The notes: generated by a model from the letters alone, not told the origin. A stretch of 64,000 bases of DNA from a virus (IMGVR_UViG_2728369134_000004:15310-79309); one strand, 5' to 3'; positions 1-39,054 are shown, numbered from the stretch's first letter. Made by a program: numbers and translations.

Positions 1-2309
1 CCAAGAACCTTCTTTGTTGAGGAGCTTACTTTCCCTTCTGTATTTGTAGCAAAACGATCTACTGAAGCGATACTGTCTTCAGTTGCTTTTTGATATGCTT
101 TATATGCAACTACTCCAGTTCCGATAAGAGCCGCTGCTATTAAACCAACAGGCCCAAGAAGTACTCCTAATGCACTTCCTAAAAATCCAACCGCAGCACC
201 AGCAAGACCTGCAGCGCCACCAGCAATTCCTAATGATGTTGCTAGCGCTCCAATCCCTGACATAACCATCCCGACTGCCGCTAAAACTACACCGATTGCA
301 GCGGCTACCGCTGTTAAAGCAAGAACAATACCACCTGTAATTGCTATTGCCTTTTGTACAGGAGCAGGTAAAGAGTTAAATCCATCAACAAGTTTTTGTA
401 AACCCGCAACAAAAGCACTCACTACAGGAGCAAGTGCGTCACCAATTGTCTTTTTCATAGTAGAAAACGCTGAATCTAATAATGTAATTCGTCCTTGTAG
501 AGTATCAATTTTAGTCGCTGCAACATCAGCAGCCGTAACTTTAGACATGGCATCCCACATCTCATTGACACCTTTTGCTCCTTCTTTAAAGAGAATAGTC
601 GCACCACGTACCGCATCCGAACCAAATAATGTTTCTAAAGCCATGCTTCGTTGCTGGTCTGTCAAATCTTTCATTGATTCATGAAGTGTCCCTGAAATAT
701 TTTCTAGACTTTGAATATGCCCTTGTTGATCGTAGAATTTTGATGATAAGAAAGCTGAACTTGTTGCTAATTCACGAAATGTTGTATCACATTTATCATT
801 CCATTTCGTTACACCTTCTGTTTTCATTACATATTGTTCTAAAGCTACTTCTATATCCCCTACATTTCTGGAAGCTGGTTGAATACCGTTTTTAACTAAG
901 AAATCAAAACCAGCCTGCGCATTATAAGTAATAAGTCCTAAATCTCTCATTTTGTTATATGCTTCTTTTGTTGAAGGATTTAAACGCATGAGCATTGTTT
1001 TTAAAGATGTTCCTGCATCTGATCCCTTTAGACCATTTTGAGCAAACACTGCCAGAGTCGTAGCTGTATCTTTAAACGTCATCCCTGCTCCTGCTGCTAC
1101 TGCTGAAGATGCCGCTAAACCATATTTCAGTTCACGTACATCTGTAGCCGATGCGTTTGCTGCACCTGATAAAATGTTAGCCGCATCCGCTACTGATAGA
1201 TGGTCTGCTTTAAACGCATTTAAGGCTGTCGATGCAATTTCTGCCGCTTCACCTAAATCTAATTCTCCAGCAGTGGCTAGGTTCAGCGCACCAGATAGAC
1301 CCCCATTAATAATATCTGTTAAACTGACACCAGCTTTTATTAATTCTTCAATACCTTTTCCTGCTTCTACAGAAGAATATTTTGTTGTTTCACCCATATT
1401 GACAGCTAATTCACTTAATTTCTTCATTTCTTCTCCAGTAGAACCAGATACTGCTTTAACATTAGCCATTTGCTGTTCAAAATTCATCGATTCTGTAACT
1501 GCGGACTTTAAACCACGACCTATTGCATATGTCATTCCACCAAAAACAATACCAATTTGACTTCCTGCATTTTGCAAATGATTCCCCAGTGTTTCCATGC
1601 GATTCCCGAAATTCAGTAGTCGATTCCCTTGTTGCTCAAGTTCATGATTTGACTGACGTAATCCTTGTTCAAATCGATTTAATTCAGCAGTGGCCCTATG
1701 AATTTGTTCTGCGTAACGTTGCGCTGATTGACTCGCTTCTCCTTCCTCGGTTTTAGCGCGATTATAAGCTGACTGAAGCTCCCTAATTTTCTCTTTTTGC
1801 TTATCTACCATACGAGATAGAACATCAATTTTCGCTCGTGTCTGTTCAGTCGCATTGGTGTACCCATGCATCCCCGTTGTAACCGCTTGGAATTCAGCTT
1901 GTAAAGATTTCAATGAATTATTTAATTTATCCATTGCTGTTTGTTGCGCCTGACGATTCACTTGTTTGAGTTCATTCTCAAATCGATTTAAATCCGCAAC
2001 AGCCTTATTAACTTGTGCAGCGTACCGCTGAGTTGCAGCATCATTTTCACCTAATTTAGCTTTGTTCTGATCATAAGCTTGACGTAATGCCTTAACTTTT
2101 TCTTTTTGGGCTTCAATGAGTCTGCTGAGCGTATTCAATTTTGCCTGTGTTTGCTGACTAGCGTTGGCAAAACCGCCCATCCCTGTGCTTACAGATTTCA
2201 ACTCATTCTGTAACGTCCTGACTGCACGCCCTGAATTTGAGATACCTTGTCGAAAGTTTACATTATCAAGGGAAAGTCTAACGACCAGATTATTTATTTC
2301 GTTCGCCAT
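1..2309 (-). CDS. Tail tape measure protein A (5' part; runs off the window)
   Basis: Not in the ORF track. ATG at 2309 after a GGAGGTG RBS, reading MANEINNLVVRLSLDNVNFRQG...; Ala/Gly-rich helical TP901-type TMP sequence following the tail chaperones. Confidence 0.9.
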   Translation of the reverse strand, partial: MANEINNLVVRLSLDNVNFRQGISNSGRAVRTLQNELKSVSTGMGGFANASQQTQAKLNTLSRLIEAQKEKVKALRQAYDQNKAKLGENDAATQRYAAQVNKAVADLNRFENELKQVNRQAQQTAMDKLNNSLKSLQAEFQAVTTGMHGYTNATEQTRAKIDVLSRMVDKQKEKIRELQSAYNRAKTEEGEASQSAQRYAEQIHRATAELNRFEQGLRQSNHELEQQGNRLLNFGNRMETLGNHLQNAGSQIGIVFGGMTYAIGRGLKSAVTESMNFEQQMANVKAVSGSTGEEMKKLSELAVNMGETTKYSSVEAGKGIEELIKAGVSLTDIINGGLSGALNLATAGELDLGEAAEIASTALNAFKADHLSVADAANILSGAANASATDVRELKYGLAASSAVAAGAGMTFKDTATTLAVFAQNGLKGSDAGTSLKTMLMRLNPSTKEAYNKMRDLGLITYNAQAGFDFLVKNGIQPASRNVGDIEVALEQYVMKTEGVTKWNDKCDTTFRELATSSAFLSSKFYDQQGHIQSLENISGTLHESMKDLTDQQRSMALETLFGSDAVRGATILFKEGAKGVNEMWDAMSKVTAADVAATKIDTLQGRITLLDSAFSTMKKTIGDALAPVVSAFVAGLQKLVDGFNSLPAPVQKAIAITGGIVLALTAVAAAIGVVLAAVGMVMSGIGALATSLGIAGGAAGLAGAAVGFLGSALGVLLGPVGLIAAALIGTGVVAYKAYQKATEDSIASVDRFATNTEGKVSSSTKKVL

Positions 2310-2325
2310 AGTCTCACCTCCCTCG

Positions 2326-2520
2326 TTAAATAATGTTTTCAGCTGGCACTTCTACTTCATTTGAATTAGATCCTTCGTGATTTTCATTTCCGTTTTCATG
2401 CATTTTGCGATTAAGCCTCAAATAATGCCAAATATCCATCTCATTATCAATGTGATGGTGTTTGTACCCTTGTTGCAATAAAGAGAGGTAGAGTTCATCC
2501 ATAAACTCGCCGAATGTCAA
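2326..2520 (-). CDS. Tail assembly chaperone, downstream (GT-like) frame
   Basis: Between the chaperone and the TMP; lies in the -1 frame of the upstream ORF. Confidence 0.7.
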   Translation of the reverse strand: MTFGEFMDELYLSLLQQGYKHHHIDNEMDIWHYLRLNRKMHENGNENHEGSNSNEVEVPAENII

Positions 2521-2531
2521 CCCTCCTCCCT

Positions 2532-2849
2532 CTATACGTTTGGGTTTTCTACTCCATCAGCTACAGGATTAGCGCCCGCTGCTTCTACCGTTTCATTAAC
2601 TAGAGCATTAATTACATCTGTTGTCGTTAGTAAAAATTTCCGAGCGTCTATACCGTCCCAATACTGATCTACTGTAAATTGTTCACCGTAAACCTGTACA
2701 ACATATTCCACCATCTTATCTAAATCGGAAGCTTCAGGATTATTTGGAATGTCTGCAAGTTCAGGAGCTCGGCGAATTAAACGAGCTGGGATGAATGCTG
2801 GTAAGTTAAAAGTTTTTTCTTCGTTATTGATTCGTAAAGTTAATTTCAT
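2532..2849 (-). CDS. Tail assembly chaperone (gpG-like)
   Basis: Follows the major tail gene; slippery CCCAAAC near the 3' end. Confidence 0.8.
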   Translation of the reverse strand: MKLTLRINNEEKTFNLPAFIPARLIRRAPELADIPNNPEASDLDKMVEYVVQVYGEQFTVDQYWDGIDARKFLLTTTDVINALVNETVEAAGANPVADGVENPNV

Positions 2850-2896
2850 AATTTATTCCTCCTTAAATAATAAAAAGAGAGAGCATTTGCTCCCTC

Positions 2897-3505
2897 TTAT
2901 TTTCCTGCTGGTGGTTGTGCGACTGGTTTTTCATATACTTTATTAAACCAATTATCTCCAACTGATTTTGTAAACGTTGGCTCATCTTCATCCGCTGTAA
3001 ATTTCGTTCTATCATCAAAATCACGTTCAATAAAGGAACCTTTCAATTTTGTTGTTTGGAAATTCGGTTTATCTTTTTTCGTTTCAGCCTCTTCTTCCTC
3101 TTGTGAAAGTTTCCCTTTTAATAACCAAACATATCGATACTTACCATTGGCTTTTAAGAATCGGAAACCAATAGCTAAATATGGTTTCTCACCTTCACGT
3201 TTCTCATCTAAAACTCCATCTTTTACTTCTGGAAACCCTTCAATGTCAGCCTTTGTTGATAGAGAAATACTTCGAAGTTCGATTTCCACTTCAGTTTCAC
3301 CATCAGATTCTGCAATCTCTGATTTTCTGTTATCGCTCCACATAACCTCAGAAGATACTTTTTTAGTTAATTTAACCTTTACTGCACCTTCCATTTTTTT
3401 AACCGTGCTGTAATCAACACCAGTTGCATCATCTTTTAATGACTTCGCATAAACTAGGTTATCTACACCGACAGTCGAACTAATTTTAATAACTTCTCCA
3501 GCCAT
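2897..3505 (-). CDS. Major tail protein (phi13 family)
   Basis: VGVDNLVYA...YLAIGFRFLKANGKYRYVWLLKGK motifs; synteny. Confidence 0.9.
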   Translation of the reverse strand: MAGEVIKISSTVGVDNLVYAKSLKDDATGVDYSTVKKMEGAVKVKLTKKVSSEVMWSDNRKSEIAESDGETEVEIELRSISLSTKADIEGFPEVKDGVLDEKREGEKPYLAIGFRFLKANGKYRYVWLLKGKLSQEEEEAETKKDKPNFQTTKLKGSFIERDFDDRTKFTADEDEPTFTKSVGDNWFNKVYEKPVAQPPAGK

Positions 3506-3865
3506 CTATAACTCCACTCCTTTTGCGAATCGCATCGCGTAATGAAATATTTCTGTATCATCTTCATATAAATCAGCAATCGCATAACGTGAGAAGCCGA
3601 TACTTTTCATGACTTCATTCACTTTTTGATGAATTGCTGTTGTACTACCCTTTGCCCAAACATCAATTTGAAACAAGACTTCACTTTCAATTTCTCGATT
3701 ATCTGCAAATCCATCTGGCCTATTATCTAATTCAAAATACGTAATTCGCGGAAACTCTTCTGCTTTCTTTGCTTTACGGTAATAAATTCTTTTTCCACCT
3801 AACAATGAAACAAGCTCTTGATTATTCTCAAGAGCTTGTAAAATATCAGGTCTTAGATTTATCAC
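3506..3865 (-). CDS. Tail terminator / completion protein (DUF3168-like)
   Basis: FPRITY, FQIDVW motifs; synteny. Confidence 0.8.
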   Translation of the reverse strand: MINLRPDILQALENNQELVSLLGGKRIYYRKAKKAEEFPRITYFELDNRPDGFADNREIESEVLFQIDVWAKGSTTAIHQKVNEVMKSIGFSRYAIADLYEDDTEIFHYAMRFAKGVEL

Positions 3866-10313: not shown

Positions 10314-10697
10314 CTACCCGTACTTCTTTTTGTCTTCTGCTGTTTTCCTGTTGTGACATGGATTACAAAGTGATTGTAAGTTTTCTAATTTAAGTTTTAA
10401 ACTTGGATCAACTTTTATTGGAATGATATGGTCAACCATATCTGCAACTTTAATCTTTCTATTGTTCTTACAGTGTAGGCACAAACCCTTATCTCTCATT
10501 AGTGCCTGCTCTCTTAACCTTTCCCATGCCTTTGATTTATAGAAAGCCGTGCTCTCCTTGTCTCGTTTGAATCGGTCATAGTATCTATTCTTATCCTGCT
10601 GCGTTTCCTTTTCTTTGTACCTATGTTCATCACAATACCTTTCGCGTGTGAGATTATAACAATGGAATTCGCAGCACGGTCTAAGCGGCTTCCTCAT
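10314..10697 (-). CDS. Packaging-associated HNH endonuclease
   Basis: CLHC...VDHIIP...NLQSLCNPCHNRKT; adjacent to cos and terS. Confidence 0.92.
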   Translation of the reverse strand: MRKPLRPCCEFHCYNLTRERYCDEHRYKEKETQQDKNRYYDRFKRDKESTAFYKSKAWERLREQALMRDKGLCLHCKNNRKIKVADMVDHIIPIKVDPSLKLKLENLQSLCNPCHNRKTAEDKKKYG

Positions 10698-10765
10698 CTC
10701 TCCTCACTCCTTACCTTATCTCAACAAACAAGACGCTCCATAATTTACAGTAGCGCCTACAATAA

Positions 10766-11179
10766 TCAAATTTGATTTGAACATTTTATATCTAATTTAT
10801 TCGCTTGTAATTTAATGAAGTCTGCTGTCTGTTCAATTGTGGATTGAGTAATCGATTTTATATCGAAAGATACTTCAGCCATTTCAGTTTGGACTTTAAA
10901 TTTATTCATCACCTTTTCCAACTTCTCCAACGCATCTGCACATTCATTAGCAGCTTCCGTTACTTCCTTGATCCCTTCTAATGCTTTTGTTGTATCTACA
11001 CTAACTTGTATTGTTAGTTCACTATTCTTATTTTGATTTACTTGCTTCTCGACTGGATTATATGGTTTCTCTATTGTCGGGCCACCACATTTAACACAGT
11101 TCATTCCTTCTAAAAAATGACCGAACATTACTGTACGACATTCGTTATCTCTACATTCCAATTGCATTTTATATTTCAT
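10766..11179 (-). CDS. Hypothetical protein with N-terminal Zn ribbon and coiled coil
   Basis: CRDNEC...CVKC; GGAGG RBS. Confidence 0.65.
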   Translation of the reverse strand: MKYKMQLECRDNECRTVMFGHFLEGMNCVKCGGPTIEKPYNPVEKQVNQNKNSELTIQVSVDTTKALEGIKEVTEAANECADALEKLEKVMNKFKVQTEMAEVSFDIKSITQSTIEQTADFIKLQANKLDIKCSNQI

Positions 11180-11210
11180 TCTTCATCCTCCTCCAAAATA
11201 AAAAGCACCA

Positions 11211-11363
11211 TCACTTGGCGCTTTCTTTTTTCTTATTCACCTGTTGCAACGTCATTGGCCCGTTGCAATGAGGACATTTCCAACCGTCACGTATCTTATG
11301 AGAAGTCTCTTCAAATCCGCAGTTTCTATCTAAGCACCAATGTTTTGTTAATGGCATTTTCAA
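11211..11363 (-). CDS. Small Zn-ribbon protein (50 aa, not in the ORF track)
   Basis: MKMPLTKHWCLDRNCGFEETSHKIRDGWKCPHCNGPM...; GAGGTG RBS. Confidence 0.6.
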   Translation of the reverse strand: MKMPLTKHWCLDRNCGFEETSHKIRDGWKCPHCNGPMTLQQVNKKKESAK

Positions 11364-11377
11364 ACTCACTTCACCTC

Positions 11378-11632
11378 TCACTTTCCCCTTTCAAACCTCT
11401 TCCTTAATCGTTTCATTTCATCTTCTATAGCAAGATTCTTTTTATTAATCCGCTCATGACACTTTGCTATATCTGCTTGATACTTACGAATCTTATCATT
11501 CACGTACGCAGCTACATGTTCATGATTACAATGAGGACAAATAAAGAAACACTTCTCAATACGATTATGAAGTTGTGTTACTTGCGGATGCATGTCATAA
11601 CTTTTATCACACTCAGAGCAATAAACTTGCAT
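11378..11632 (-). CDS. Zn-ribbon hypothetical protein
   Basis: CSEC...CPHC. Confidence 0.65.
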   Translation of the reverse strand: MQVYCSECDKSYDMHPQVTQLHNRIEKCFFICPHCNHEHVAAYVNDKIRKYQADIAKCHERINKKNLAIEDEMKRLRKRFERGK

Positions 11633-11651
11633 TCCCTTTCACCTCATTGAT

Positions 11652-11843
11652 CTATTGATTCTTACTTAATGAATCAATTAATATCTCACGTGTTAATTCA
11701 AATGACTGCTCTTCGTTAAATCCCGCTTCTTTAAATTGCGTAAAGGCAGCAAACATCATTTTAGCGGCCAAAGCAAAATCTAACATAGCGTTTCCTACTT
11801 GTTCATTTTGCATATCGTTAACGATTTTATTAAATCCGTTCAT
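11652..11843 (-). CDS. Hypothetical phage protein
   Basis: RBS; operon packing. Confidence 0.6.
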   Translation of the reverse strand: MNGFNKIVNDMQNEQVGNAMLDFALAAKMMFAAFTQFKEAGFNEEQSFELTREILIDSLSKNQ

Positions 11844-12182
11844 TCAGTTATTCTCCTTTCCATATTCTTTTTTAAATTTCTTTAATGCACGTTTGAACTT
11901 CCAGATAAAATACTTATCTTTTAACCGCACAAAAAAAGAAGGACAAAACTGTTTGTAGTTTTCTTTATCCTTCTTCAATAATTCTTCTAATGATGTCCTA
12001 ATAAGATAGTCATTTGAGTATGGCATAAAAACATGTTTATACATTTTGTAGTGGGTGAAACGTCTTGCATCTAATCCTACATCTTCCCGAACTTTAAGAT
12101 ACCTGACATATATTGATTCATCTATAGGGAGTAAACCAAGAGCAACGATTTTCTTTTTTAAATCGTCATTCATAATCCTCAC
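11844..12182 (-). CDS. Hypothetical phage protein
   Basis: Operon packing with overlapping stop/start. Confidence 0.55.
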   Translation of the reverse strand: MRIMNDDLKKKIVALGLLPIDESIYVRYLKVREDVGLDARRFTHYKMYKHVFMPYSNDYLIRTSLEELLKKDKENYKQFCPSFFVRLKDKYFIWKFKRALKKFKKEYGKENN

Positions 12183-12400
12183 TCCTTACTCTCTAAAAAC
12201 TCATCAATCGCTTTCCCTAGTAAACTAATCGTCGCTTCCCTACGTTCTTTGGGAGTTGTATTATCAAAGAGCTCATTATGGATGGCAGTTGCTTGCGCCA
12301 ACTTCTGGGGATCAATATGTTCATTAACTATTTTCTCACCAAGCGTTGAAACACAATATGTCATTACAGCTGCTAGTTCTTGTTTAGATAACTTCTTCAA
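12179..12400 (-). CDS. Hypothetical phage protein
   Basis: GGAGTG RBS; operon packing. Confidence 0.6.
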   Translation of the reverse strand: MKKLSKQELAAVMTYCVSTLGEKIVNEHIDPQKLAQATAIHNELFDNTTPKERREATISLLGKAIDEFLESKE

Positions 12401-12406
12401 TTCTAA

Positions 12407-12630
12407 TCACTCCTGTATCTTTTTCATTGTTTCTTCTGCTACCAATTCCATCACACCGTTATCGATTTTCTTTACTAAGTACTCGCCTTGTATCCTAAAT
12501 GTGGATACACCACTTTTACTTTATCGCCTTTTTGTATAGTAGTTTGACCTAGCGCATCTGCCTTCGTTTCTACCTGACGCACTTTCTGTTCTAGATATTC
12601 TAATCGCATTGACAACTCTTGAATGTCCAT
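12407..12630 (-). pseudogene. Small gene with an apparent 1-nt deletion
   Basis: MDIQELSMRLEYLEQ...VVYPHLG continues in another frame as QGEYLVKKIDNGVMELVAEETMKKIQE*; 224 nt is one base short of 75 codons. Confidence 0.5.
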
Positions 12631-12662
12631 AGTTCATTTTCCTCCAAAATAAAAAGCACCTA

Positions 12663-13409
12663 TTACGAGTGCTTTAATGATTCGATATGTTTATTAACAC
12701 GTTCATTCCCTAACTTCCAATACTCTTCATCCATTTCAAATCCAATGTAATTACGATTTGTATTGATACATGCTATAGCAGTCGTGAATGACCCCATACA
12801 GTTATCTAAAACGATTTCGCCTTCTTTTGTATACGTCTTAATCAAGTACTCAAATAAAGCTACAGGCTTTTGTGTTGGATGAAATGTCTTGCTATCACGC
12901 GGAAAATCAATCACAGATTTTGGATAATTAGTGTATTTTTTAACATGTACTTTATTTAATGATTCATTGTTTCTTTTACCGAGTATCTTCATTCTACGTA
13001 TTTCTTTCTTTTGAATCGGTTTATCTAATAAAATTAAATCTTGCGGATAATATTTAGGCAGTTTTTTGTAGAATACTAATATGTTTTCATGATTTTTGAG
13101 CGGCATTCTGTTTGCATTCGGAAAACCTGTTGTATGATTTCCCTTCTTCCAGATCCACTCATAACGAAACAATTTAATATTTGAGGCAATCAACTTAGTA
13201 GTGAAAGGTTGGCTTGCTGTTAAAAGGATGGCCCCATTATCTTTTATAATTCTTTCGTATTGTTCCCATAGCAAATCGAACGGAATAATATTGTCCCATT
13301 TACATGCAGTAGTTCCATAAGGTAAATCACAAAGAATCATATCGATGGATTTATCTTCAATCATTTTCATACCTTCTAAACAATCCATATTAAGTACTTG
13401 ATTCAGCAT
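12663..13409 (-). CDS. Orphan N6-A/N4-C DNA methyltransferase (beta class)
   Basis: ILCDLPYG catalytic motif, HPTQKP, VLDNCMGS SAM-binding motif; no cognate restriction gene nearby. Confidence 0.92.
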   Translation of the reverse strand: MLNQVLNMDCLEGMKMIEDKSIDMILCDLPYGTTACKWDNIIPFDLLWEQYERIIKDNGAILLTASQPFTTKLIASNIKLFRYEWIWKKGNHTTGFPNANRMPLKNHENILVFYKKLPKYYPQDLILLDKPIQKKEIRRMKILGKRNNESLNKVHVKKYTNYPKSVIDFPRDSKTFHPTQKPVALFEYLIKTYTKEGEIVLDNCMGSFTTAIACINTNRNYIGFEMDEEYWKLGNERVNKHIESLKHS

Positions 13410-13603
13410 ATGTTATCCCATCCATTTCTACAATTAGAGTATGTTGAACGTTGTTAATATCCTAAATTATTCTGGTATGCAACTTTTGAAATCCATAAAC
13501 TACAAAAAAAGAGCAACCGTGCACCAGTTGCCCTTCTGCTAAAATTGTATGCTATCAATATAAATCATTTTTTCAACCGTTTCGATTCATTTTAGGAGTG
13601 AAC

Positions 13604-14011
13604 CTAAATGATACCTTCACGCTCCACGAACTTAATCAGTCGAACAAGTTCAGCATGTTTCTTTTTGATATGACTAGAACTATAATTTACTACCTCTGCT
13701 ATTTCTTCTAACGTCATACCATCCACATATTTCAATTTGAGTATCTGATTTTCTAATCCTCTAAACTTACTAATTAACTTTTTTAATTTATACATATCGT
13801 TCATCTTATGTGCTAATTCATATTCAATCGCTTCAATACGGTTTTCAACTTTTGCACCTTCAGATTCTGCCGTTAAACGTACTTCTCTCAAATCACCACT
13901 AACCCAGCGTCTTAATTCGGCTTTTGTTTTATCTAAGTTGTATTCCAGATAGGCTATGTCTTCTTCTAACTTTTGGTAATCTCTCAGCCAGTTAAACAAA
14001 TGATGATTCAC
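13604..14011 (-). CDS. Late transcription regulator A (ArpU/RinA-like, sigma region-4 HTH)
   Basis: ILKLKYVDGMTLEEIAEVVNYS HTH; position ahead of the late operon. Confidence 0.8.
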   Translation of the reverse strand: MNHHLFNWLRDYQKLEEDIAYLEYNLDKTKAELRRWVSGDLREVRLTAESEGAKVENRIEAIEYELAHKMNDMYKLKKLISKFRGLENQILKLKYVDGMTLEEIAEVVNYSSSHIKKKHAELVRLIKFVEREGII

Positions 14012-14171
14012 CTACTTTCATATTTCCAGATCAACAACCACATTTCCGATTGTCGATAGGTGTCAAAATGTCTTGTTGTTTATTCTTACAACTTGTACAT
14101 TTGTTTTGCTATAATGGATTTACATTGCCATCTGGAAAAGTGACTTGCCCCATCGAGTTGCTTTTCCTTTT

Positions 14172-14294
14172 TTATTTTATGATTCCTGATTTCACAAAAA
14201 TATTTCTCCAAGCTGCAGCAGTCCGTTCTTTATCAATTTCCTTTTGACGATTCAAAATTGCTCTTTTTACATGTTTTTTCTTTCCAGTTCTCAT
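14172..14294 (-). CDS. Small basic protein (DUF3983-like, 40 aa)
   Basis: MRTGKKKHVKRAILNRQKEIDKERTAAAWRNIFVKSGIIK; RBS. Confidence 0.6.
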   Translation of the reverse strand: MRTGKKKHVKRAILNRQKEIDKERTAAAWRNIFVKSGIIK

Positions 14295-14447
14295 TTTTTA
14301 TACTCCCTTTCTTAATAAATTCATTCTAATTTCCGCACAACACGTATAACAGGTTTGTACGCTCGAATAAGAGCTTTTTTATTAATAAGGTCTTATGATA
14401 TTCAGTAGGTTGTTATCGTCTCACAATGAGCAATCTGAGGAGTTAAC

Positions 14448-14660
14448 TTATTCGAACTTTTGTTCTCCGCTAACATTTATCTCACTAACTTCATTTATAA
14501 TGACTCCTTTGTCTACTAAATCATCCTCAGTTCTTTTTAAACGTTTGATTGTATTAATAACTTCTTCTGTTGACTCTGCTTCAACGACAGCTTCATACAC
14601 TTTTAATTCTGTGAAAGTCACATTAAATGTTTTCATTCTTTCTACTCCCTTTCTATTCAA
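14448..14660 (-). CDS. Hypothetical protein (likely starting at MKTFNV)
   Basis: AAAGGGAG RBS before the second Met. Confidence 0.6.
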   Translation of the reverse strand: MNRKGVERMKTFNVTFTELKVYEAVVEAESTEEVINTIKRLKRTEDDLVDKGVIINEVSEINVSGEQKFE

Positions 14661-14711
14661 ATAGCGTTTTTGTTCAAAATAATACTCCTATCCATTTGGA
14701 CACATTTACCA

Positions 14712-14812
14712 GTATTTTTACCAAAAAATTCATGATATGGTTATTTAGTCGAGTACGTCATTACTTGACAATTACCCTTAGGAACTCCGCAGACAAACGG
14801 GGTTTCTTTTAT
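14712..14812 (+). ncRNA. Putative sRNA unit A1
   Basis: GTATT-N14-CATGATA promoter-like; ~70 nt with no RBS-led ORF; GAACTCCG/CGGGGTTTC hairpin plus T-run. Confidence 0.5.
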
Positions 14813-14829
14813 TTAAATAACGATTTTGT

Positions 14830-15060
14830 TTAATTTCTAACTTTTATCACATTAGTTTTAAATGCTTCACCCTTACGGTTAAAAGATACAATATTCATAC
14901 CATGATAATCTCTGTGCCACCGGAAAGTTGGATCTAATCTATTATTAAACTCTCCATCAAACTTTCGTATCGTTGAAATTTTGATATTCTTCATTCCCAT
15001 AAAATTTTCTTCACCTATTTTTGTCATTTGTCTATTTCTTGTATGTCTCATCCGTTCCAT
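14830..15060 (-). CDS. Hypothetical accessory protein
   Basis: GGAGGGG RBS; stop abuts a boundary motif. Confidence 0.55.
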   Translation of the reverse strand: MERMRHTRNRQMTKIGEENFMGMKNIKISTIRKFDGEFNNRLDPTFRWHRDYHGMNIVSFNRKGEAFKTNVIKVRN

Positions 15061-15099
15061 TCCCCTCCATATCTTTTATCACTAAATGTAAATATTAAG

Positions 15100-15232
15100 T
15101 TGTAAATTTAATTTACTTAGTGCTATAATTCGAGAGATCGATAGTTACATTCACTGATCAACCTCATGTAATTTTAATAAAAGTTCTCGAGATTCAGCCC
15201 CTAACAGCGCACCGTTAGGGGCTGAATTCTTT
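15100..15232 (+). ncRNA. Putative sRNA unit A2 (sigma-A type promoter)
   Basis: TTGTAA-N18-TATAAT with TG extension; strong TTCAGCCCCTAAC/GTTAGGGGCTGAA hairpin. Confidence 0.55.
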
Positions 15233-15260
15233 CCAAATAAAGATTTTATTGTACAACTAC

Positions 15261-15350
15261 ACATACCTAAACAACATGCATACATTATGGTGTGTATTCA
15301 TTCAATATAAGTTTTGGTAAGAGAGTTCTTTGGCAAGAGCTCTCTATTTT
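15261..15350 (+). ncRNA. Putative sRNA unit A3 (sigma-K/E-like promoter)
   Basis: AC-N16-CATACATT; AGAGAGTTCTT/AAGAGCTCTCT hairpin plus T-run. Confidence 0.5.
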
Positions 15351-15367
15351 TAAAATAAGAATTTTGT

Positions 15368-16042
15368 TTAGTATTCTGTCGAAGCAATGATACATGGATT
15401 TGTAATATTATCCCGCTTTATTACCCATTCGAATGACCTTAAAACATACGTTTCTCCACCTCTATGAATTACTGGTTCGATTGTGGCTACTCGTTGTTCT
15501 TCGTCAGGTAATTCATCAATGCTGATATGCATTTTGTCTTTCAAACTAACTTCCCCAACAAAATATTCTTCAATTTCCTCCCAATCTATGAATTCCTCAT
15601 AAAAGTTTTTCGCTTCCTCTTCGTTCTTTGCAGCTACCCAATCGTAATCATTCATTTTAAAAACTTTCATCAGTAGCTCTGGATTCTCATAAACATTTCC
15701 TACGACTTCACATTCTTCTGAAACCCAATCAATGTCCTCGTCAATTGGGCTATCCCCTAAATAAAACGAACAATTGCCATACGTTACTTTCCAATGACTA
15801 TAAGTGGTCGCGGTGTTTTCTGGTGTTTCATACAGTGTAGGTCCTTTTAAAATGTCACCTACATAAATTTCTTTGCCGTTTTTATCCTTTATTCCCGTGT
15901 ATGGTAACAATGGAGAATAATATTGATCTTCTTTCCCGCCATTCTTCAAAGTGTCTTTTAAGCTATCAAAGTTCAAAATTTCTTCCCAGCTGTACATGAT
16001 TCGATTTTCTTTACCATATATCCGATATTTAATTTCATTCAT
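15368..16042 (-). CDS. YopX-family protein fused to an extra C-terminal domain
   Basis: EIKYR, YTGIKDKNGKEIYVGDIL, EVVGNVYENPELL YopX motifs. Confidence 0.85.
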   Translation of the reverse strand: MNEIKYRIYGKENRIMYSWEEILNFDSLKDTLKNGGKEDQYYSPLLPYTGIKDKNGKEIYVGDILKGPTLYETPENTATTYSHWKVTYGNCSFYLGDSPIDEDIDWVSEECEVVGNVYENPELLMKVFKMNDYDWVAAKNEEEAKNFYEEFIDWEEIEEYFVGEVSLKDKMHISIDELPDEEQRVATIEPVIHRGGETYVLRSFEWVIKRDNITNPCIIASTEY

Positions 16043-16069
16043 ATCTCATTCTCCTTTTCTGCCAAATAA

Positions 16070-16615
16070 CTATTTTGTACTAATTGACTCCCAATCAAAT
16101 GTTTCTAATATATTCAGTAATCGTTCCACTTTTGGTGCTCGCCATGCCGTCATAGCGTAAGTATGAGCTTTTGAAGTATAGTGGTAGTTATTTAGTTTAA
16201 GATGATTTTTTGCTTCTTCTTTTGTTAAAAACATTGTGTCAGGAACAATGAAACCTTCTTCTTTCATAAAAGCTGTATCAAAGTAACCATCATTATTTAA
16301 ATTACTTTCTACATACTCCCATAAATCATCGAACCTCTCGCTTTCATCATAAATAAGCACCCTTAATTCCTGATCTTCATCAATCTCTTCACTGTAATAT
16401 TCCTCCAAGAACTCTTTCAAATCACTGAACTTATGAAAAGTAACAAGATCACCATCATTAAAGAATCGTTCCTCTTCACCGCTGTCGTATTTCTCATTTG
16501 CTGGAACCATTCTATAATCCTTAATAACCCAAAACCGTGGCGATGCATTTCCGTCAGTTTCCTGTGTAGTTAATTCTTGTTGCAATTCCTTTAAAAATTG
16601 AATATCCTTGTTCAT
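16070..16615 (-). CDS. Hypothetical phage protein
   Basis: 181 aa, RBS. Confidence 0.7.
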   Translation of the reverse strand: MNKDIQFLKELQQELTTQETDGNASPRFWVIKDYRMVPANEKYDSGEEERFFNDGDLVTFHKFSDLKEFLEEYYSEEIDEDQELRVLIYDESERFDDLWEYVESNLNNDGYFDTAFMKEEGFIVPDTMFLTKEEAKNHLKLNNYHYTSKAHTYAMTAWRAPKVERLLNILETFDWESISTK

Positions 16616-16633
16616 TTCCCCGTTCCCCTTTAC

Positions 16634-16766
16634 GAATAATCTTTTTTTACATTACACATACTATCTACAAGTCAACTTCCCATGACTACACTCTTTCAAA
16701 ACGGAGCTTGTTCCTCCGTACTGTTTTGGATCGCGGCAGGTAACTTAGTCACTTACCTGCCATTTT
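16634..16766 (+). ncRNA. Putative sRNA unit A4 (sigma-G consensus promoter)
   Basis: GAATA-N18-CATACTA; hairpins exposing CUUCCC and UUCCUCC; GGCAGGTAA/TTACCTGCC terminator. Confidence 0.6.
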
Positions 16767-16787
16767 CTATTCAAATAACGCTTTTGT

Positions 16788-17177
16788 TTAGTTTTCAATT
16801 AGCACTAACAAGTCATAATTTGATTCAATAAATTCCATGCATAATTTTCTGTTTACGTCGTTTCCTAAACGTTCATAAATCAATAGCATTTCATGTTTTG
16901 TAAAGCTTGTCCCTAATAACTGGTTAAAGCTTTTTAAGATTTTTCTAGATTTATAATCACTCAAACTTTTACTAATTGGTCTTGATAACCAAGCAAACAT
17001 CTTACATATAAAATCCATATGATTTTCTACATCTTCTAATCTGAAATAAAGGTTGCTTCTAGGGTCGAATATCAATTCGTTACTACTATTTACAAAAGCC
17101 TTCGGGAAAAATCCCTGTGTCTTTTTTACTAAGCTTTGTACTTCTTCATTCATTTCTCGTTCCCCATTTCTGTACAA
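16788..17177 (-). CDS. Hypothetical phage protein (likely starting at MNEEVQ)
   Basis: Flanked on both sides by boundary motifs. Confidence 0.7.
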   Translation of the reverse strand: MYRNGEREMNEEVQSLVKKTQGFFPKAFVNSSNELIFDPRSNLYFRLEDVENHMDFICKMFAWLSRPISKSLSDYKSRKILKSFNQLLGTSFTKHEMLLIYERLGNDVNRKLCMEFIESNYDLLVLIEN

Positions 17178-17192
17178 AATTCAAATTTTGTC

Positions 17193-17675
17193 TTACTTTA
17201 CGCCCGTACTTCCAAATCCACCTGTCCCACGATCACTACGTGATAGCTCGTCTACCTCAACAAAATTAGCTGTTTCGACTGGCGCTATGACACCTTGGGC
17301 GATGCGATCTCCCTTTTTAACCACATATGTCACACTCTTGAATATTTCATGTTCATCATTGATACCTAATGTAATTGAATTACCTGGATATGATATATTG
17401 CTGACTATAACTCCTACCTCACCTCTAAAACCGCTATCCGCCGTACCGAGCACTACTCTAAGAAACGTTTTACGTGAAATTCCGCTTCTTGGTCTCACCT
17501 GAAGTTCAAATCCTGGTGGTATTTCGAATGCCAATCCTGTAGGGATTACTTTCGTTTGCCCTGGCTCAATAATTGTGCCTTCCGCTGCTACAAGATCAAA
17601 ACCGCTATCTCCTGGCTTCGCATACTTAGGCAAATCCACATCTTTCACTCGCTTAATCTTCACTCGTAAATTCAT
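17193..17675 (-). CDS. dut: Trimeric dUTPase
   Basis: SGFDL, RPRSG, GTADSGFRGE, RIAQ, RGTGGFGSTG motifs. Confidence 0.96.
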   Translation of the reverse strand: MNLRVKIKRVKDVDLPKYAKPGDSGFDLVAAEGTIIEPGQTKVIPTGLAFEIPPGFELQVRPRSGISRKTFLRVVLGTADSGFRGEVGVIVSNISYPGNSITLGINDEHEIFKSVTYVVKKGDRIAQGVIAPVETANFVEVDELSRSDRGTGGFGSTGVK

Positions 17676-17679
17676 TCCA

Positions 17680-17856
17680 TTACGCCCCTTTTAATGAACT
17701 TTCAATTCGTTGCTTACGTGTAAGTAAATCTTCTAAATTACCTTCTGTTTTCTTTTTCTCAAGCCCTAACATATTTAAATGTAGTTTCATGTTGCTTATA
17801 TCTGAATTAACACTTTCTAATTCTGACTCCAGTTGAACCCTTGTTTCTTTCTTCAT
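17680..17856 (-). CDS. Small coiled-coil protein (58 aa)
   Basis: MKKETRVQLESELES...; GGAGG RBS. Confidence 0.55.
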   Translation of the reverse strand: MKKETRVQLESELESVNSDISNMKLHLNMLGLEKKKTEGNLEDLLTRKQRIESSLKGA

Positions 17857-17866
17857 GCAATCCCTC

Positions 17867-18121
17867 CTACAGTCCTAAATGCTCCATGATCTTACCGATG
17901 TTCTCATCGAAACCAATGTATGGTTTCCCCTCGATAATAAACGTTGGTAATGAACTAGATTTATATACAGCTTGTAATACATGCAGGTTGTTTTTGTCCT
18001 CATCCACATTTCTTTCAATCAATTCCACTTCATGTCCTATCGGTAGGTTGTTCAACATTTCTTTTGCTCTTTTGCATTTCGGACAAGAATTTCCAGTGTA
18101 TATAATGATCTTAGTTGCCAT
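17867..18121 (-). CDS. NrdH-like glutaredoxin
   Basis: IYTGNSCPKC...SLPTFII...IGFD. Confidence 0.88.
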   Translation of the reverse strand: MATKIIIYTGNSCPKCKRAKEMLNNLPIGHEVELIERNVDEDKNNLHVLQAVYKSSSLPTFIIEGKPYIGFDENIGKIMEHLGL

Positions 18122-18187
18122 TCTCTTCAGTCTCCTTCACTTCTGCTAATAATTGAGTAATTTCAAACGTGCCATGCTCTGTATATT

Positions 18188-18391
18188 TCATTGTTCTTCC
18201 TCCCTGTGATCTGCTAAAATATCCTCTAATGTGATTGCCGTATTTTCTAATGTGTGCCACTGTCCTTTATGAAATCCCGATAATCCTAAATCCCCACTAT
18301 CAAAAGCTTTGTCAGCTTCTTTTCTGCTCTCTACTGCCGATTCACGTAATCCTCTTATAAGCTCTTCAATCGCTTCTCTCATTTTCTCCAT
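18188..18391 (-). CDS. Hypothetical protein
   Basis: Operon packing. Confidence 0.55.
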   Translation of the reverse strand: MEKMREAIEELIRGLRESAVESRKEADKAFDSGDLGLSGFHKGQWHTLENTAITLEDILADHREEEQ

Positions 18392-18506
18392 CTCCTTTTA
18401 GTAGCCCCGCCAGTTCCTCGCAACTCCCTTCAAACAAGTCGCGCCCATCCGGTAGCTTGTATATGTGATTATCGATTAATTTGTTGATTAAAACGTCTTG
18501 CTCCAT
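18366..18506 (-). CDS. FbpA-like small protein (46 aa)
   Basis: MEQDVLINKLIDNHIYKLPDGRDLFEGSCEEL resembles the LI..L...G.YK...R.LYE..L.EL pattern of Fur-regulated basic protein A. Confidence 0.55.
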   Translation of the reverse strand: MEQDVLINKLIDNHIYKLPDGRDLFEGSCEELAGLLKGDGENERSD

Positions 18507-18514
18507 GTTGCCTC

Positions 18515-19204
18515 CTAGCTGATTTGTTTCTTTTTGTATTTCCTTGGTGGTTTTGTTGCTGCCTCGTACGGATCCATCTTCCTTTTTACCCTTTGATAAA
18601 ACGCTTTACTATTAATTCCGTTCGCTTCTGCTAAAGGAATGTATCTCTCAAACCCCTTTGGCTTTGTCGCTGCTTCGTATGGTGTCATTCCTTCTTTTCG
18701 GCGGCGATAGTATGTCGAATCGCTTATCCCATTACTTCTGGCTAATTTCAGCATTTTCACATTCTTTTCTTTCCCTTCATAACTCGTACCAACTGGTGAA
18801 GTAATTGCGCGTTCCATCGTCCATCCATGACGTAATCTTTGGTCAAGCAACTTTTCACTCACTCCAATTGAAACAGCTTGTTTAATTTCCTCTTTGGATG
18901 GTTTTTGATAGTTTATTTTTCGATATACAGTCGCTGGGATTGTTGCTGCCTCTTCTGGTGTCCATTTCCGACGTTTCCCATATAGAATCCTCGATCTGAA
19001 TGTTTTGTAATCAATTCCATTCTTCTTTGCTAACTCAACGTACTTTCGATACTTTCTTGCGAATTCGCCACTCAATGGTTCTGTAATTGCCTGCTCAACT
19101 GTTTTCTTTCCTTTTTTAATTCGTTGATTTACAGTCTGCCTACTAATACCATTCTGTTCCGCTATTTTATATTGCACTTCCGTTGGTTTCTCCTTACTTT
19201 CCAT
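18515..19204 (-). CDS. Mini-HTH repeat protein (5 repeats; PVL-ORF50-like)
   Basis: A..NGI...T...R....W..E.A.T.P repeats. Confidence 0.75.
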   Translation of the reverse strand: MESKEKPTEVQYKIAEQNGISRQTVNQRIKKGKKTVEQAITEPLSGEFARKYRKYVELAKKNGIDYKTFRSRILYGKRRKWTPEEAATIPATVYRKINYQKPSKEEIKQAVSIGVSEKLLDQRLRHGWTMERAITSPVGTSYEGKEKNVKMLKLARSNGISDSTYYRRRKEGMTPYEAATKPKGFERYIPLAEANGINSKAFYQRVKRKMDPYEAATKPPRKYKKKQIS

Positions 19205-19574
19205 TCCTTGTCACCTTCTTTTTCCTTACCCTTGACGATATTTCTGCTGCTTCTTTTTTAGTCAATCTTGGGACTGTCGCAGCTTCAATTGGTTCCCAAA
19301 AAGATTCTTTAATACGTTGGCGAAATAACCGATATCCAATTCCGTTTTCCACCGCTATTGCTAGTTCTTTCTTGTACTTTTTCGTAAATGATTCATTCAC
19401 AGGTCGTGTGATAGCTTTTAATATGTTCCAACCTCGTATAATCCTCTGATCTACGTTGCATTTGCTAATACCATTGTTCTTAGCAATTTCATATTGTTCC
19501 CAAGTTGGAACTGGAAGGTAATTATTCTCCGTGCTTGCATATTCTTCTTCGGCATACCACCGATCTAAATCCAT
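19194..19574 (-). CDS. Mini-HTH repeat protein (2 repeats)
   Basis: Same repeat. Confidence 0.75.
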   Translation of the reverse strand: MDLDRWYAEEEYASTENNYLPVPTWEQYEIAKNNGISKCNVDQRIIRGWNILKAITRPVNESFTKKYKKELAIAVENGIGYRLFRQRIKESFWEPIEAATVPRLTKKEAAEISSRVRKKKVTRNGK

Positions 19575-19576
19575 TT

Positions 19577-20038
19577 TCAGATTGCCTCCTTCTTAGCTCT
19601 ATGTTTAATATTAGGCGGAGTCGTTATAGCGCGTTCTATCTCCCATTTAAGTACAAAGACTCTAGTTCTTACTGTTCGTTTTCCAATGCCGTTATTTAGT
19701 GCTATGCGGTATTGTGACGGCGTTATGATATCTGTTTTGGAGTGTGCTCTTTTCGTGCATTCTATTGGCGATAAAACTGGCGTCGTTGCCGCATCATCAG
19801 GATTCCAGTTGTAACGTTTAATCCTGGAGAAGAACGTATCATATGAGATACCATTTTGTTGTGCCAATTCCCATTGTTTTGCATACAGTTTTTTTAAACT
19901 AACGAATAAAGGCTTACTAATTGCGTCCTTTACAGTCCAACCATAAACATTAATCCGCTGATCTACCGTACACTTCTTTATTCCGTTACGTTTTGCGATT
20001 TCATATTCTTCCCAAGTAGGAACAGGACTATATTCCAT
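19577..20038 (-). CDS. Mini-HTH repeat protein (3 repeats)
   Basis: Same repeat. Confidence 0.75.
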   Translation of the reverse strand: MEYSPVPTWEEYEIAKRNGIKKCTVDQRINVYGWTVKDAISKPLFVSLKKLYAKQWELAQQNGISYDTFFSRIKRYNWNPDDAATTPVLSPIECTKRAHSKTDIITPSQYRIALNNGIGKRTVRTRVFVLKWEIERAITTPPNIKHRAKKEAI

Positions 20039-20063
20039 AAAGTTTCACCTTCCTCACTTTAAA

Positions 20064-20489
20064 TTAGTTACAACAACGTCTCCCGGTTTCTATTGGCGGA
20101 ACAGTAGCTGCCAATTCTATATCCCACTTATAATTACGTATCCGTGAGTGAAATGTTTGATAGTTAATTCCATTTGCTTCAGCTAACTTAGCCATTTCTT
20201 TAATAAATTCAGATGGCTTTTTAACTGGTTTCGTGGCTGCTTCTTCTGGAGTAAACCCTAAATTAATTCGGCTATAAAATGTGTTGGGATTCATTCCGTT
20301 TTTCACTGCGATTTCTAGCCAGATTTCAGATTGGCTTTTTTTAGAAGCGCGTTTCTTTCCTGGTGGGGTTGTTACGGCCTCTACAACATCCCAAGCGCAG
20401 TTGTAAACACGATTTCTTAAAGTATTCTTATTTATTCCGTTTTCTTCAGCTCGTTGATAATCAGATTGACTTAAAATCCCCTTTTTCAT
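20064..20489 (-). CDS. Mini-HTH repeat protein (3 repeats)
   Basis: Same repeat. Confidence 0.75.
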   Translation of the reverse strand: MKKGILSQSDYQRAEENGINKNTLRNRVYNCAWDVVEAVTTPPGKKRASKKSQSEIWLEIAVKNGMNPNTFYSRINLGFTPEEAATKPVKKPSEFIKEMAKLAEANGINYQTFHSRIRNYKWDIELAATVPPIETGRRCCN

Positions 20490-27385: not shown

Positions 27386-28525
27386 TCATTTCAAAGCCAT
27401 TTTAGGTAGGGAAATATAGAAAAAATCACCTGTTTTTTCAAAATCTGCTATGGCCTCTTCAAAGAATGTTTTATCTCCTGTAGCAAGACCTTTGTAGTAT
27501 TTTTGGAAAGGAGAAAGACTGCCATATTTCTTTTCTAACCCCTCTAAAATAATAATCGCCTCTTTCTCTCTGCCTATTTTTGCGTATAAATGTGCTTTTT
27601 CAGCTAAACTCGACGGGTTTATTTTATCAAGATTCTTTTCATGAACTATATTAAGAAAATCAAGCGTGTTTTTTATAAACCCTTTACGATTAAGAAGTTT
27701 TTTATTTGTAATGATTGGAAGAGTGGCGAAAGATTGTTCTAAAAAATAATGTGCCTTTTCATAATCCATCATATGCGTTTCGGCCAATGTACAATAAGCT
27801 AATGATTTCATACAATCATAAGGATTAGTTTCATCGTTTATAATTTCGAAACATAATTTCCTCGCAGTCTCTAAATCATTTCCTCTTTGTGCACTCATTG
27901 ACTCCATTTCTTTTATTCGTAATGAATATGATTTTCTAATGGTATCTTTACTAACATCATCAATCATTGGTTTCAATTGATTTGTATATTGTGAAACCAT
28001 TCGATAGTCGCCAAAATTTAGTTGAGCATATATAAACGCAAACCCTGATAATATTTTAGCTTCGTTGTTAGATGTTTTAAAAGAATTCCTCATCTTGTCC
28101 GTCTCCACAAAAAAGTCATTATTAGATATCCTTCCAGACAGTCGCAGAGCAAGTAAATCATAAATAGATGCTATTTTCTTATTTATTCTTGCGTTTTTCG
28201 TAGTTTTATCTGAGTTTATTATTTTAGCGGTCAATTGTTTTTGTAATCCGTATTCGCCATACATATTCAAAACTTCCATGGCTACCCGTTCATTAACTGG
28301 CGTTAATTGTTCGAACATTTTTTTGACGCATTCTCTTCTATAGTTGATGTTATTCGGTTTATGCAACCTCAATGATTCTACAAAGTGCATAAAGTCAAAT
28401 TCACTAGTCGCTTTAAAATAACTGTTCACAGTTGTGTGACTAACATCGAATCGTTTAGCTAATTTACGATTCGTGTACCCGTTACTCTTTAAATCCTCAT
28501 GCATGTTACTTAATAAACTCTGCAT
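27386..28525 (-). CDS. aimR: Arbitrium receptor AimR (RRNPP family, HTH plus TPR)
   Basis: N-terminal HTH, helical TPR-like body, FEKTGDFFY C-terminus; followed by aimP. Confidence 0.88.
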   Translation of the reverse strand: MQSLLSNMHEDLKSNGYTNRKLAKRFDVSHTTVNSYFKATSEFDFMHFVESLRLHKPNNINYRRECVKKMFEQLTPVNERVAMEVLNMYGEYGLQKQLTAKIINSDKTTKNARINKKIASIYDLLALRLSGRISNNDFFVETDKMRNSFKTSNNEAKILSGFAFIYAQLNFGDYRMVSQYTNQLKPMIDDVSKDTIRKSYSLRIKEMESMSAQRGNDLETARKLCFEIINDETNPYDCMKSLAYCTLAETHMMDYEKAHYFLEQSFATLPIITNKKLLNRKGFIKNTLDFLNIVHEKNLDKINPSSLAEKAHLYAKIGREKEAIIILEGLEKKYGSLSPFQKYYKGLATGDKTFFEEAIADFEKTGDFFYISLPKMALK

Positions 28526-28609
28526 TATTTGTCCTCCTCGTGGACAAAAAGACACGTAAACCCCATTTTCTTACATAAAAGGAAAACGTGTCACTCTCAC
28601 TCTAAGTTG

Positions 28610-38960: not shown

Positions 38961-39054
38961 CTCCTCAAAATAAAAAGAGAAGCGAAATCGCTCCTCTTGA
39001 TCTATGAATTGAATTTTTACTCAAAGCCGTATTTTGTTCAAAATAAAAAGCCCA

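Follow-up and report, generated by a model that had tools for sequence, protein, structure and literature searches.

A series of ordered 15-nt linkers marks a probable gene-swapping scaffold, not an integron, in a Wbeta-like prophage

The viral stretch IMGVR_UViG_2728369134_000004:15310-79309 (64,000 nucleotides from a viral contig of 79,309 bases, referred to here as the window) carries a Wbeta-like prophage of the Bacillus cereus group whose variable stretch, located between the dUTPase gene and the late regulator, is divided into small units by a short repeated sequence that we call the linker. The linker is a 15-nt asymmetric motif. It has one orientation, is confined to the variable stretch, occurs in related phages as a series of copies in conserved order, and coincides with the points at which homology between those phages breaks. 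A preliminary description of the window had presented the region as an integron-like cassette array built on sites that resemble tyrosine-recombinase cores. The motif probably marks a gene-swapping scaffold, not an integron. We lean towards the reading that the linkers are position-specific sites where short-homology recombination exchanges cassettes, as at the promoter-early stem-loop (PeSL) elements of T4-type phages and the boundary sequences of lambdoid phages.

The phage genes at the array locus lie on the minus strand, and on this sense strand the linker has the tight consensus A[C/T]AAAA-NNN-[T/C]TATTT (AYAAAA-NNN-YTATTT). The strict form is present six times in the 64-kb window against 0.35 expected, a count reached in none of 100 shuffles. 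The six copies lie within 2.1 kb, and the strict pattern occurs nowhere else in the window. All eight sites given in the preliminary description are present in the sequence and six of them fit the tighter consensus. The 6-6-6 pattern under which they had been grouped did not survive, as with one mismatch allowed it is found 14 times against 8.7 expected, a number reached in five of 100 shuffles; it is not significant and was replaced. The listed site at 16631 has two mismatches to the new consensus, and the site at 17174 is not a copy of the motif but a distinct element, described below.

The six linkers are all on the minus strand. Linker 1 (ACAAAAGCGTTATTT, central triplet GCG, 16773..16787) abuts the TAA of the gene at 16788-17177, and Linker 2 (ACAAAATAGTTATTT, TAG, 16064..16078) contains at its centre the stop codon of the gene at 16070-16615. 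Linker 3 (ACAAAATTCTTATTT, TTC, 15353..15367) abuts the TAA of a YopX-family gene, Linker 4 (ATAAAATCTTTATTT, TCT) is found at 15235..15249, and Linker 5 (ACAAAATCGTTATTT, TCG, 14815..14829) abuts the TAA of the gene at 14830-15060. Linker 6 (ACAAAAACGCTATTT, ACG, 14659..14673) is followed by the ribosome-binding site and ATG of the gene at 14448-14660. The degenerate copy (AAAAAAAGATTATTC, 16631..16648, minus strand) is positioned just upstream of the ribosome-binding site of gene 16070-16615. The stop codons reported earlier are confirmed, three TAA codons at 14830, 15368 and 16788 adjoining the motif and one TAG lying inside it. The intervals between linkers (694, 696, 103, 405 and 141 nt) are single genes or hairpin units, also as first described.

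Across 98 unique contexts the sequence logo reads aAAAwyTAA-ACAAAA-tcg-TTATTT-GA and is followed by a purine-rich run. The logo is asymmetric. Symmetry is confined to C2-A5 against T13-G16, so the only dyad in the linker is the 4-bp CAAA/TTTG, and the inverted arms proposed for the motif are correspondingly weak. Folding of 40-nt stretches at the motif gave -0.6 to -2.3 kcal/mol with z-scores from -0.68 to +0.93, that is, no fold, and an Rfam search of 13500-18000 returned two sub-threshold chance matches and nothing else. Sigma-70 and sigma-F/G promoters, the CodY box, the ComK box, Chi and dif were compared with the motif by eye from their consensus sequences, and none of them fitted.

The surroundings of the linker are regular. 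A stop codon stands directly before it in 59 of 122 copies and within it in most others, and in 97 of 98 contexts one or more reading frames are closed by the linker. What follows in these contexts is a Shine-Dalgarno (SD) sequence and start codon in 48, a hairpin in 34, both in four and neither in 12. Where a gene follows, the SD sequence comes directly after the linker and the start codon lies 14-24 nt downstream. With a stop codon upstream and an SD sequence and start codon downstream of the linker, any unit between two linkers is terminated and restarted cleanly.

A megablast search with positions 14300-17700 as the query matched 30 Bacillus phage records. Coverage of the query stays below 80% in all 30, and the ends of the alignments are concentrated at motif copies. 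For comparison we assembled 18 loci (151 kb), consisting of the window and the corresponding stretch from 17 B. cereus-group phages. These contain the strict motif 76 times in the sense orientation and once in antisense, so that the single orientation first noted in the window extends across the phages. Five whole phage genomes (215 kb) contain 29 sense copies and no antisense copy, while a reversed control pattern was found twice, and all 29 copies lie within approximately 2 kb downstream of the dUTPase gene. The phages that carry linkers are temperate phages of the B. cereus group (Wbetavirus, Hubeivirus, Cecivirus, phBC6A51 and phBC6A52), in which the order is kept and the units differ.

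A wider sample comprised 18 prophage loci (about 230 kb) of other species with a related late regulator, among them Lysinibacillus, Jeotgalibacillus, Virgibacillus, Viridibacillus, Carnobacterium and several Bacillus species. This sample bears on the simplest alternative, in which the motif is due to chance or is a by-product of AT-rich intergenic composition. The near-background count of the loose 6-6-6 form points that way, as do the scattered single matches that a 14-base form of the motif gives among the IMG/VR loci listed. We give this alternative practically no credence. The strict form is enriched and confined to one region, is found almost exclusively on one strand and in conserved order, and is essentially absent from the 18 comparably AT-rich loci of the wider sample (two sense copies and one antisense); the enrichment, confinement, strand and order data already refute a compositional origin. 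The IMG/VR search itself returned at least 121 stretches and was not used, the matches looking like chance because each of the 80 loci listed has just one.

The copies of the linker can be told apart. In the window the central triplets run GCG, TAG, TTC, TCT, TCG, ACG, and this order, with TCT or TCC in the fourth slot, is kept in 17 phages, with 179 concordant pairs against 12 discordant ones. Departures from it come from blocks that are duplicated in PfEFR-4 and LY4, from phBC6A51, which is rearranged, and from Wbeta and Fah with one discordant pair apiece. Each slot-specific 15-mer is unchanged in 5-14 unrelated flank contexts and similarity stops at its edges; the 15-mer of Linker 1 is common to 11 different flank contexts and that of Linker 2 to 14. 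The central triplet therefore goes with the position in the array and not with the cassette. A test for purifying selection at orthologous diverged junctions had just six usable pairs and was underpowered.

In contrast to the linkers, the units between them change. The arrays were cut at the motif, the resulting segments were clustered and their open reading frames (ORFs) were grouped into families. The 103 inter-linker segments fall into 69 clusters, and their 69 ORFs into 40 mostly unrelated families. A given slot is mostly occupied by unrelated families in different phages, and the slot taken by the YopX, F3, F4, F5 and F11 families varies from phage to phage. The units comprise small genes, non-coding hairpin or small RNA (sRNA)-like units, and reverse-oriented morons. 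Some arrays contain genes on the reverse strand.

The array begins with an element of its own. Directly after the dUTPase stop codon is the sequence ACAAAATTTGAATTTTGT (17174..17191, minus strand), an 8-bp inverted repeat with a TG spacer, which had been listed as a copy of the repeated motif with perfect inverted arms. Its general form, CMAA(A)TTTGAATTTTRT, is present as one sense copy right after a dUTPase-type gene in 17 of the 18 loci, with no antisense copy. The locus without it is that of Fah, for which a deletion in this region is described in the available text of PMC4113786. The phage sequences diverge directly after this element, which is separate from the linker motif and marks where the array starts.

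It had been proposed that the motif marks the junctions of the accessory region, and that insertion and deletion break points falling elsewhere would speak against this. Between related phages the break points of gain, loss and replacement are at or inside the motif, in favour of this part of the proposal. Windows around the motif make up 2.3% of the sequence and contain 116 of 578 unique BLAST end points. A homology break is carried by 56 of 72 gene ends with the motif and by 100 of 264 without it. Pairs of contexts that share flanks give a similar picture, as at motif junctions 72 share one flank and 23 share both, against 45 and 173, respectively, at gene ends that lack the motif.

The same is seen along the window. 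Seven Wbeta-like phages align with 92-94% identity as far as 14639-14661, where the ACG linker lies, and the homology of z1a runs on to 14813. Phage 11143 matches 14815-16078 with 99.8% identity, from linker to linker, LY4 matches 14815-15250 with 100% identity, and the match of A16R4 spans 15235-16798. Linker 4 is the end of six phage matches (at 15250) and the start of two (at 15235). The homology of MY192 and PfEFR-4 ends near Linker 3 (15372-15375), that of A16R4, 11143 and J5a ends near Linker 1 (16796-16798), and that of J5a and 11143 starts near the degenerate copy (16611 and 16623). A junction element is no more than 12 nt away from 12 of the 29 clusters of alignment ends in 13540-17960. 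The ends away from junctions are mostly within the dUTPase gene, at gene starts (15059, 15091, 16611 and 16623) or within the YopX gene (15844).

Two recent exchanges are bounded by these sequences. PfEFR-4 corresponds to PfNC7401 with an additional 750 bp comprising three units, and the 400-nt flanks on both sides are 100% identical. The insert is bounded by two copies of AYAAAATCGTTATTT, namely ACAAAATCGTTATTT and ATAAAATCGTTATTT. The second exchange is the known difference between Gamma, which carries the fosB fosfomycin-resistance gene, and Wbeta, which has collagen-like and cupin genes in its place; the differing stretches are 2420-3818 of the Gamma locus and 958-3818 of the Wbeta locus. 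The left border of this replacement is approximately 24 nt past the dUTPase stop codon, immediately behind the start element, and its right border is the TAG linker, beyond which the two phages are 100% identical. The TAG-linker 15-mers of Gamma and Wbeta differ at position 2 only.

Cross-overs are found on both sides of the central triplet, with positions 7-10 shared in 17 of 26 pairs that have only the left flank in common and in 31 of 46 that have only the right one. Such two-sided cross-overs fit exchange anywhere along a short shared tract. The edges of the 15-mer are sharp, left-only pairs breaking at position 16 in 12 of 26 cases and right-only pairs at position -1/0 in 12 of 46.

We favour a scaffold of linkers at the level of DNA, the reading that is in keeping with all contexts. 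Units would be swapped between co-resident phages and prophages by recombination at the linkers, with approximately 15-25 nt of common linker sequence serving as micro-homology and host RecA or a phage recombinase as the probable agent. The slot-specific triplets may bias exchange towards equivalent slots, which would keep the linkers in order, and a dedicated site-specific recombinase would not be needed.

Several points weigh against this proposal. A tract of approximately 15-25 nt is at or below the usual minimum for efficient homologous recombination, and among the proteins of the window prophage PHROGs recognised no single-strand annealing protein, several early genes being of unknown function. 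Exchange is read from the comparison of sequences. The pair statistics, with an odds ratio of 12 for the pairs that share flanks, are drawn from related genomes, so their p-values are nominal, and the odds ratio of 5.7 for gene ends with and without the motif is confounded by the mosaicism of the region, which exceeds that of its surroundings. Nor is the array universal, since BMBtp15 has no copy of the motif and the 18 loci of other species have only the three already mentioned. The model explains neither how unrelated genes first came to be framed so precisely, with the stop codon abutting the linker in 59 of 122 copies, nor why the slot-specific triplets are invariant in unrelated contexts. 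The precise framing and the invariant triplets together could be a sign of a sequence-specific function or enzyme.

The loci of other species contain no alternative repeated junction motif, and one motif-poor locus of a Bacillus species has a late regulator 97% identical to that of the window. From the near-absence of the motif in this sample it follows that the array is lineage-restricted, to a subset of B. cereus-group phages, and that there is no independent replication set for the array statistics.

An integron was the first interpretation of the region, and there are real likenesses. In both cases the units are small and mostly single genes, the site lies in one orientation just after the stop codon, and the units vary. 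Integron attC sites are imperfect inverted repeats of 57-141 bp that fold as single-stranded hairpins, and a core site of the dif or att type has two inverted recombinase-binding arms of approximately 11 bp around an overlap region of 6-8 bp. The linker array, unlike an integron, has no adjacent integrase, no attC-like fold and no single insertion point, and some of its units are reverse-oriented with their own terminators. The identity of the linker by position is the opposite of what is found for attC sites, of which each cassette brings its own. Integron cassettes are also promoterless and point one way behind a common promoter; the linkers are uniform in orientation, 34 of 98 contexts precede a hairpin unit, some arrays include reverse-strand genes, and promoter- and terminator-like sites lie on the plus strand of the window. 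The integron or tyrosine-recombinase model, which calls for an intI-type gene with attI, fails because the array lacks an adjacent recombinase, the linker lacks binding arms and a fold, and site identity goes with position. The recombinase gene at 37992-38960, suggested earlier as a candidate enzyme, encodes a tyrosine integrase that is 21 kb away and outside the array prophage.

A more general version of the idea is that a dedicated sequence-specific recombination or homing enzyme moves cassettes by cleavage and joining at the linker. The candidates are a host XerCD-like enzyme, the small integrase encoded beside ArpU in some phages, or an unrecognised protein. The linkers would then be addresses for a phage or host activity, and the triplet an overlap that must match. 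Such an enzyme would account for the sharp boundaries at both edges of the 15-mer, for indels bounded exactly by two copies and for the stop codons that directly abut the motif. If it needed the central triplets of both partners to be the same, the order of the linkers would be explained as well. In A16R4, PfEFR-4 and phBC6A52 the annotation shows a small integrase near the array. However, Pfam and PHROGs searches with the 20 ORFs of 10314-20038 found no recombinase, and none is annotated in the compared stretches of 11 phages (Wbeta, Gamma, Fah, J5a, z1a, Tavor_SA, McSteamy, Carmel_SA, HD29phi, LY4 and phBC6A51). The 4-bp dyad offers no inverted binding arms, there is no attC-like fold, cross-overs fall on both sides of the centre, and linker identity follows position rather than cassette. 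We consider an enzyme of this kind unlikely; the unexplained framing of genes and the invariant triplets keep its probability from being lower, and the same slight probability attaches to the linkers being its addresses. If it were true, the array would be an addressable cassette rack, a means of site-specific gene exchange in temperate phages that is unrelated to integrons and without a recognisable adjacent recombinase.

Another possibility is that the motif is a cis-acting expression signal that each unit needs, recombination being a by-product, as with the promoters and terminators of PeSLs. Candidate signals are a NusG-dependent pause of RNA polymerase at TTNTTT in the non-template strand, an mRNA processing site and a ribosome standby site. 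TTNTTT is the pause motif of Bacillus NusG according to the available text of PMC12288461. Positions 10-15 of the linker read TTATTT, which fits this motif, with T at positions 10, 11, 13, 14 and 15 in 83-97 of the 98 contexts. The orientation of the copies is that of transcription (29 of 29 in whole genomes, and 76 against 1 in the 18 loci), they lie 14-24 nt upstream of start codons, and the invariance of slot-specific 15-mers in unrelated contexts looks like selection on the sequence itself. On the other hand, neither the late genes nor the remaining intercistronic junctions of the early operon have the motif, and 34 of 98 contexts precede a hairpin unit, not a gene. TTNTTT does not account for the ACAAAA half or the invariant A at position 12, TCATTT variants violate the pause consensus, and TTNTTT alone is described as insufficient for pausing in that part of PMC12288461. 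The motif has neither a sigma-70-like promoter on its sense strand nor a match in Rfam. A purely expression-related role is weakened by the confinement of the motif to the variable stretch and by its presence before hairpin units, and we hold it to be possible but rather improbable. The match of the TTATTT half to TTNTTT may suggest a transcriptional role.

A repressor operator had also been named as an alternative, and in that case the motif would be bound, as an operator or in the manner of a stoperator, by a phage DNA-binding protein responsible for silencing or timing the accessory region. Cluster A mycobacteriophages have 13-bp stoperators, and as far as these are described in the available text of PMC3029335, linkers resemble them in being short (13-15 bp for the two), asymmetric and intergenic, in lying near stop and start codons and in having one orientation relative to transcription. 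Stoperators occur in 24-34 copies throughout the genome and their consensus changes with the repressor (PMC3029335, same text). Linkers, in contrast, are confined to 2-3 kb and keep the same consensus in phages with unrelated repressors. With the CI-like repressor of the window as the sole query, no phage homologue exceeded 60% identity (LY4 36% and HD29phi 39%), and yet these phages share the motif. Lytic Gamma isolates, which have lost part of the lysogeny-control region (PMC4113786, available text), keep their motif copies. An operator is very improbable on this evidence.

The closest described system is that of the PeSL cassettes of T4-type phages, as set out by Arbiol et al. 2010 in the available text of PMC2839356. 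There, as here, a repeated intergenic motif is concentrated in a hyperplastic region, begins at the upstream stop codon and ends at the SD sequence and start codon of the next gene. The linkers show this placement, with 29 of 29 whole-genome copies in the variable stretch, a stop codon before 59 of 122 and an SD sequence and start codon after 48 of 98. PeSLs also bound insertions, deletions and replacements between close relatives, and recombination between copies has been proposed to shuffle the modules; the 750-bp indel of PfEFR-4 and the right border of the Gamma fosB island are likewise bounded by linkers. For PeSLs, mini-circles that arise from recombination between copies have been shown (PMC2839356, same text). 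PeSLs, which belong to lytic myoviruses of Gram-negative hosts, combine a sigma-70 promoter with a stem-loop terminator, whereas the linker is a 15-nt asymmetric core without promoter or stem-loop in temperate siphophages of the B. cereus group, and its copies are individually distinguishable and in fixed order. Comeau et al. 2014 is reportedly a further account of the PeSL cassettes of T4-type phages.

Short conserved boundary sequences, the linkers of modular theory, have been reported for lambdoid phages (PMC3029335, references 21 and 22 therein, from the available text). These are comparable as short conserved junction sequences that coincide with break points and are a possible substrate of homologous recombination. 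The linkers of the present array differ in being about 15 nt long, in marking nearly every junction of one region, and in forming an ordered series with slot-specific centres. In the literature searched, including the available parts of PMC4113786 and PMC5590980, the motif is not described; a mention in the primary papers on Wbeta, Gamma and Fah is possible.

The variable stretch of the window is held between conserved anchors on the minus strand. Upstream is the dUTPase gene (17193..17675; PF00692, E 1.3e-25). The downstream anchor (13604..14660), identified from Pfam, PHROGs and phage alignments, consists of three genes, which encode a 70-aa protein (14448-14660), a DUF3983 protein (14172-14294) and the sigma-region-4 late regulator (13604-14011). 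This regulator has 97.8% identity to its counterparts in Wbeta, Gamma, Cherry and Fah.

The cassettes of the window, all assigned to the minus strand, are as follows in the direction of the phage genes. Next to the start element is a 129-aa gene of unknown function (16788..17177; phrog_7711 in PHROGs). The second cassette (16070..16772; segment cluster c10, common to A16R4) combines a non-coding hairpin unit (16616-16772) with a 181-aa gene (16070-16615; phrog_3205). The third (15368..16063; cluster c3, also in A16R4 and 11143) is the YopX-family gene of 224 aa (PF09643, E 3.9e-17). It is followed by a 103-nt non-coding unit (15250..15352; cluster c1, five phages) with a hairpin at 15320-15345 that reads as a plus-strand terminator. 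The fifth cassette (14830..15234; cluster c0, six arrays) consists of a hairpin or sRNA-like unit and a 76-aa gene (14830-15060; phrog_2487). The last is a 141-nt non-coding unit (14674..14814; cluster c2) with a terminator-like plus-strand hairpin at 14780-14807, and a 19-codon ORF in it ends at the next linker.

The window array contains both promoter-like and terminator-like sites on the plus strand. The hairpins at 14780-14807, 15320-15345 and 16701-16719 each follow a linker and have their T-run on the plus strand, and they read as terminators against the direction of the early operon, not for the operon itself. A promoter-like plus-strand sequence, TTGTAA-18-TATAAT, is located at 15100-15129. 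It agrees with the consensus at 10 of 12 positions and has a TG ahead of the second hexamer, and downstream of it are a GC-rich hairpin at approximately 15192-15228 and a T-rich tail. The plus strand of 15100-15250 may thus encode a candidate RNA of approximately 100 nt, without an ORF and antisense to phage early genes. The 15192-15228 hairpin unit recurs after linkers in PfNC7401, PfEFR-4, J5a, LY4 and phBC6A51.

Two motif-like sequences are found elsewhere in the window. A variant linker, ACAAAATAATCCTTTGAA followed by TAGAAAG, is present on the minus strand at 62786-62803 in a second phage-like region. The same variant also occurs in PfNC7401 and, less closely, in 11143, and the remainder of an array around the window copy would fall past the end of the contig. 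A weak match (ACAAAATACGGCTTTGAG, 14.4 bits by position weight matrix) at 39020-39037, just upstream of the integrase gene 37992-38960, is probably due to chance.

Beyond the dUTPase gene the minus strand of 18515-20489 holds four tandem phrog_1065 paralogues (18515-19204, 19194-19574, 19577-20038 and 20064-20489), which have a helix-turn-helix and a PVL_ORF50-like part; Wbeta-like phages have a sigma-F-like gene in place of this tandem. At the presumed lysogeny end of this first prophage a 389-aa ORF (27386-28555) matches phrog_1728 (annotated as a transcriptional regulator) rather than an integrase, and none of the genes identified in the window is an integrase of the first prophage.

Linkers at mosaic junctions have been postulated since modular theory was formulated, and conserved linkers are not findable at most module boundaries according to the available text of PMC3029335. 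The array described here is an unusually clean case: linkers are present at almost all junctions of one region, each can be recognised individually and has its place in the order, and they delimit recent exchanges to the base. The scaffold would explain how accessory cargo is swapped among phages of the B. cereus group, including the right border of the fosB island of Gamma, a diagnostic phage that is set apart from Wbeta by this fosfomycin-resistance island. Whether the mechanism is driven by homology or by an enzyme becomes directly testable. The linkers also give a simple rule for delimiting cassettes, which helps to find small accessory genes and non-coding units in these prophages.

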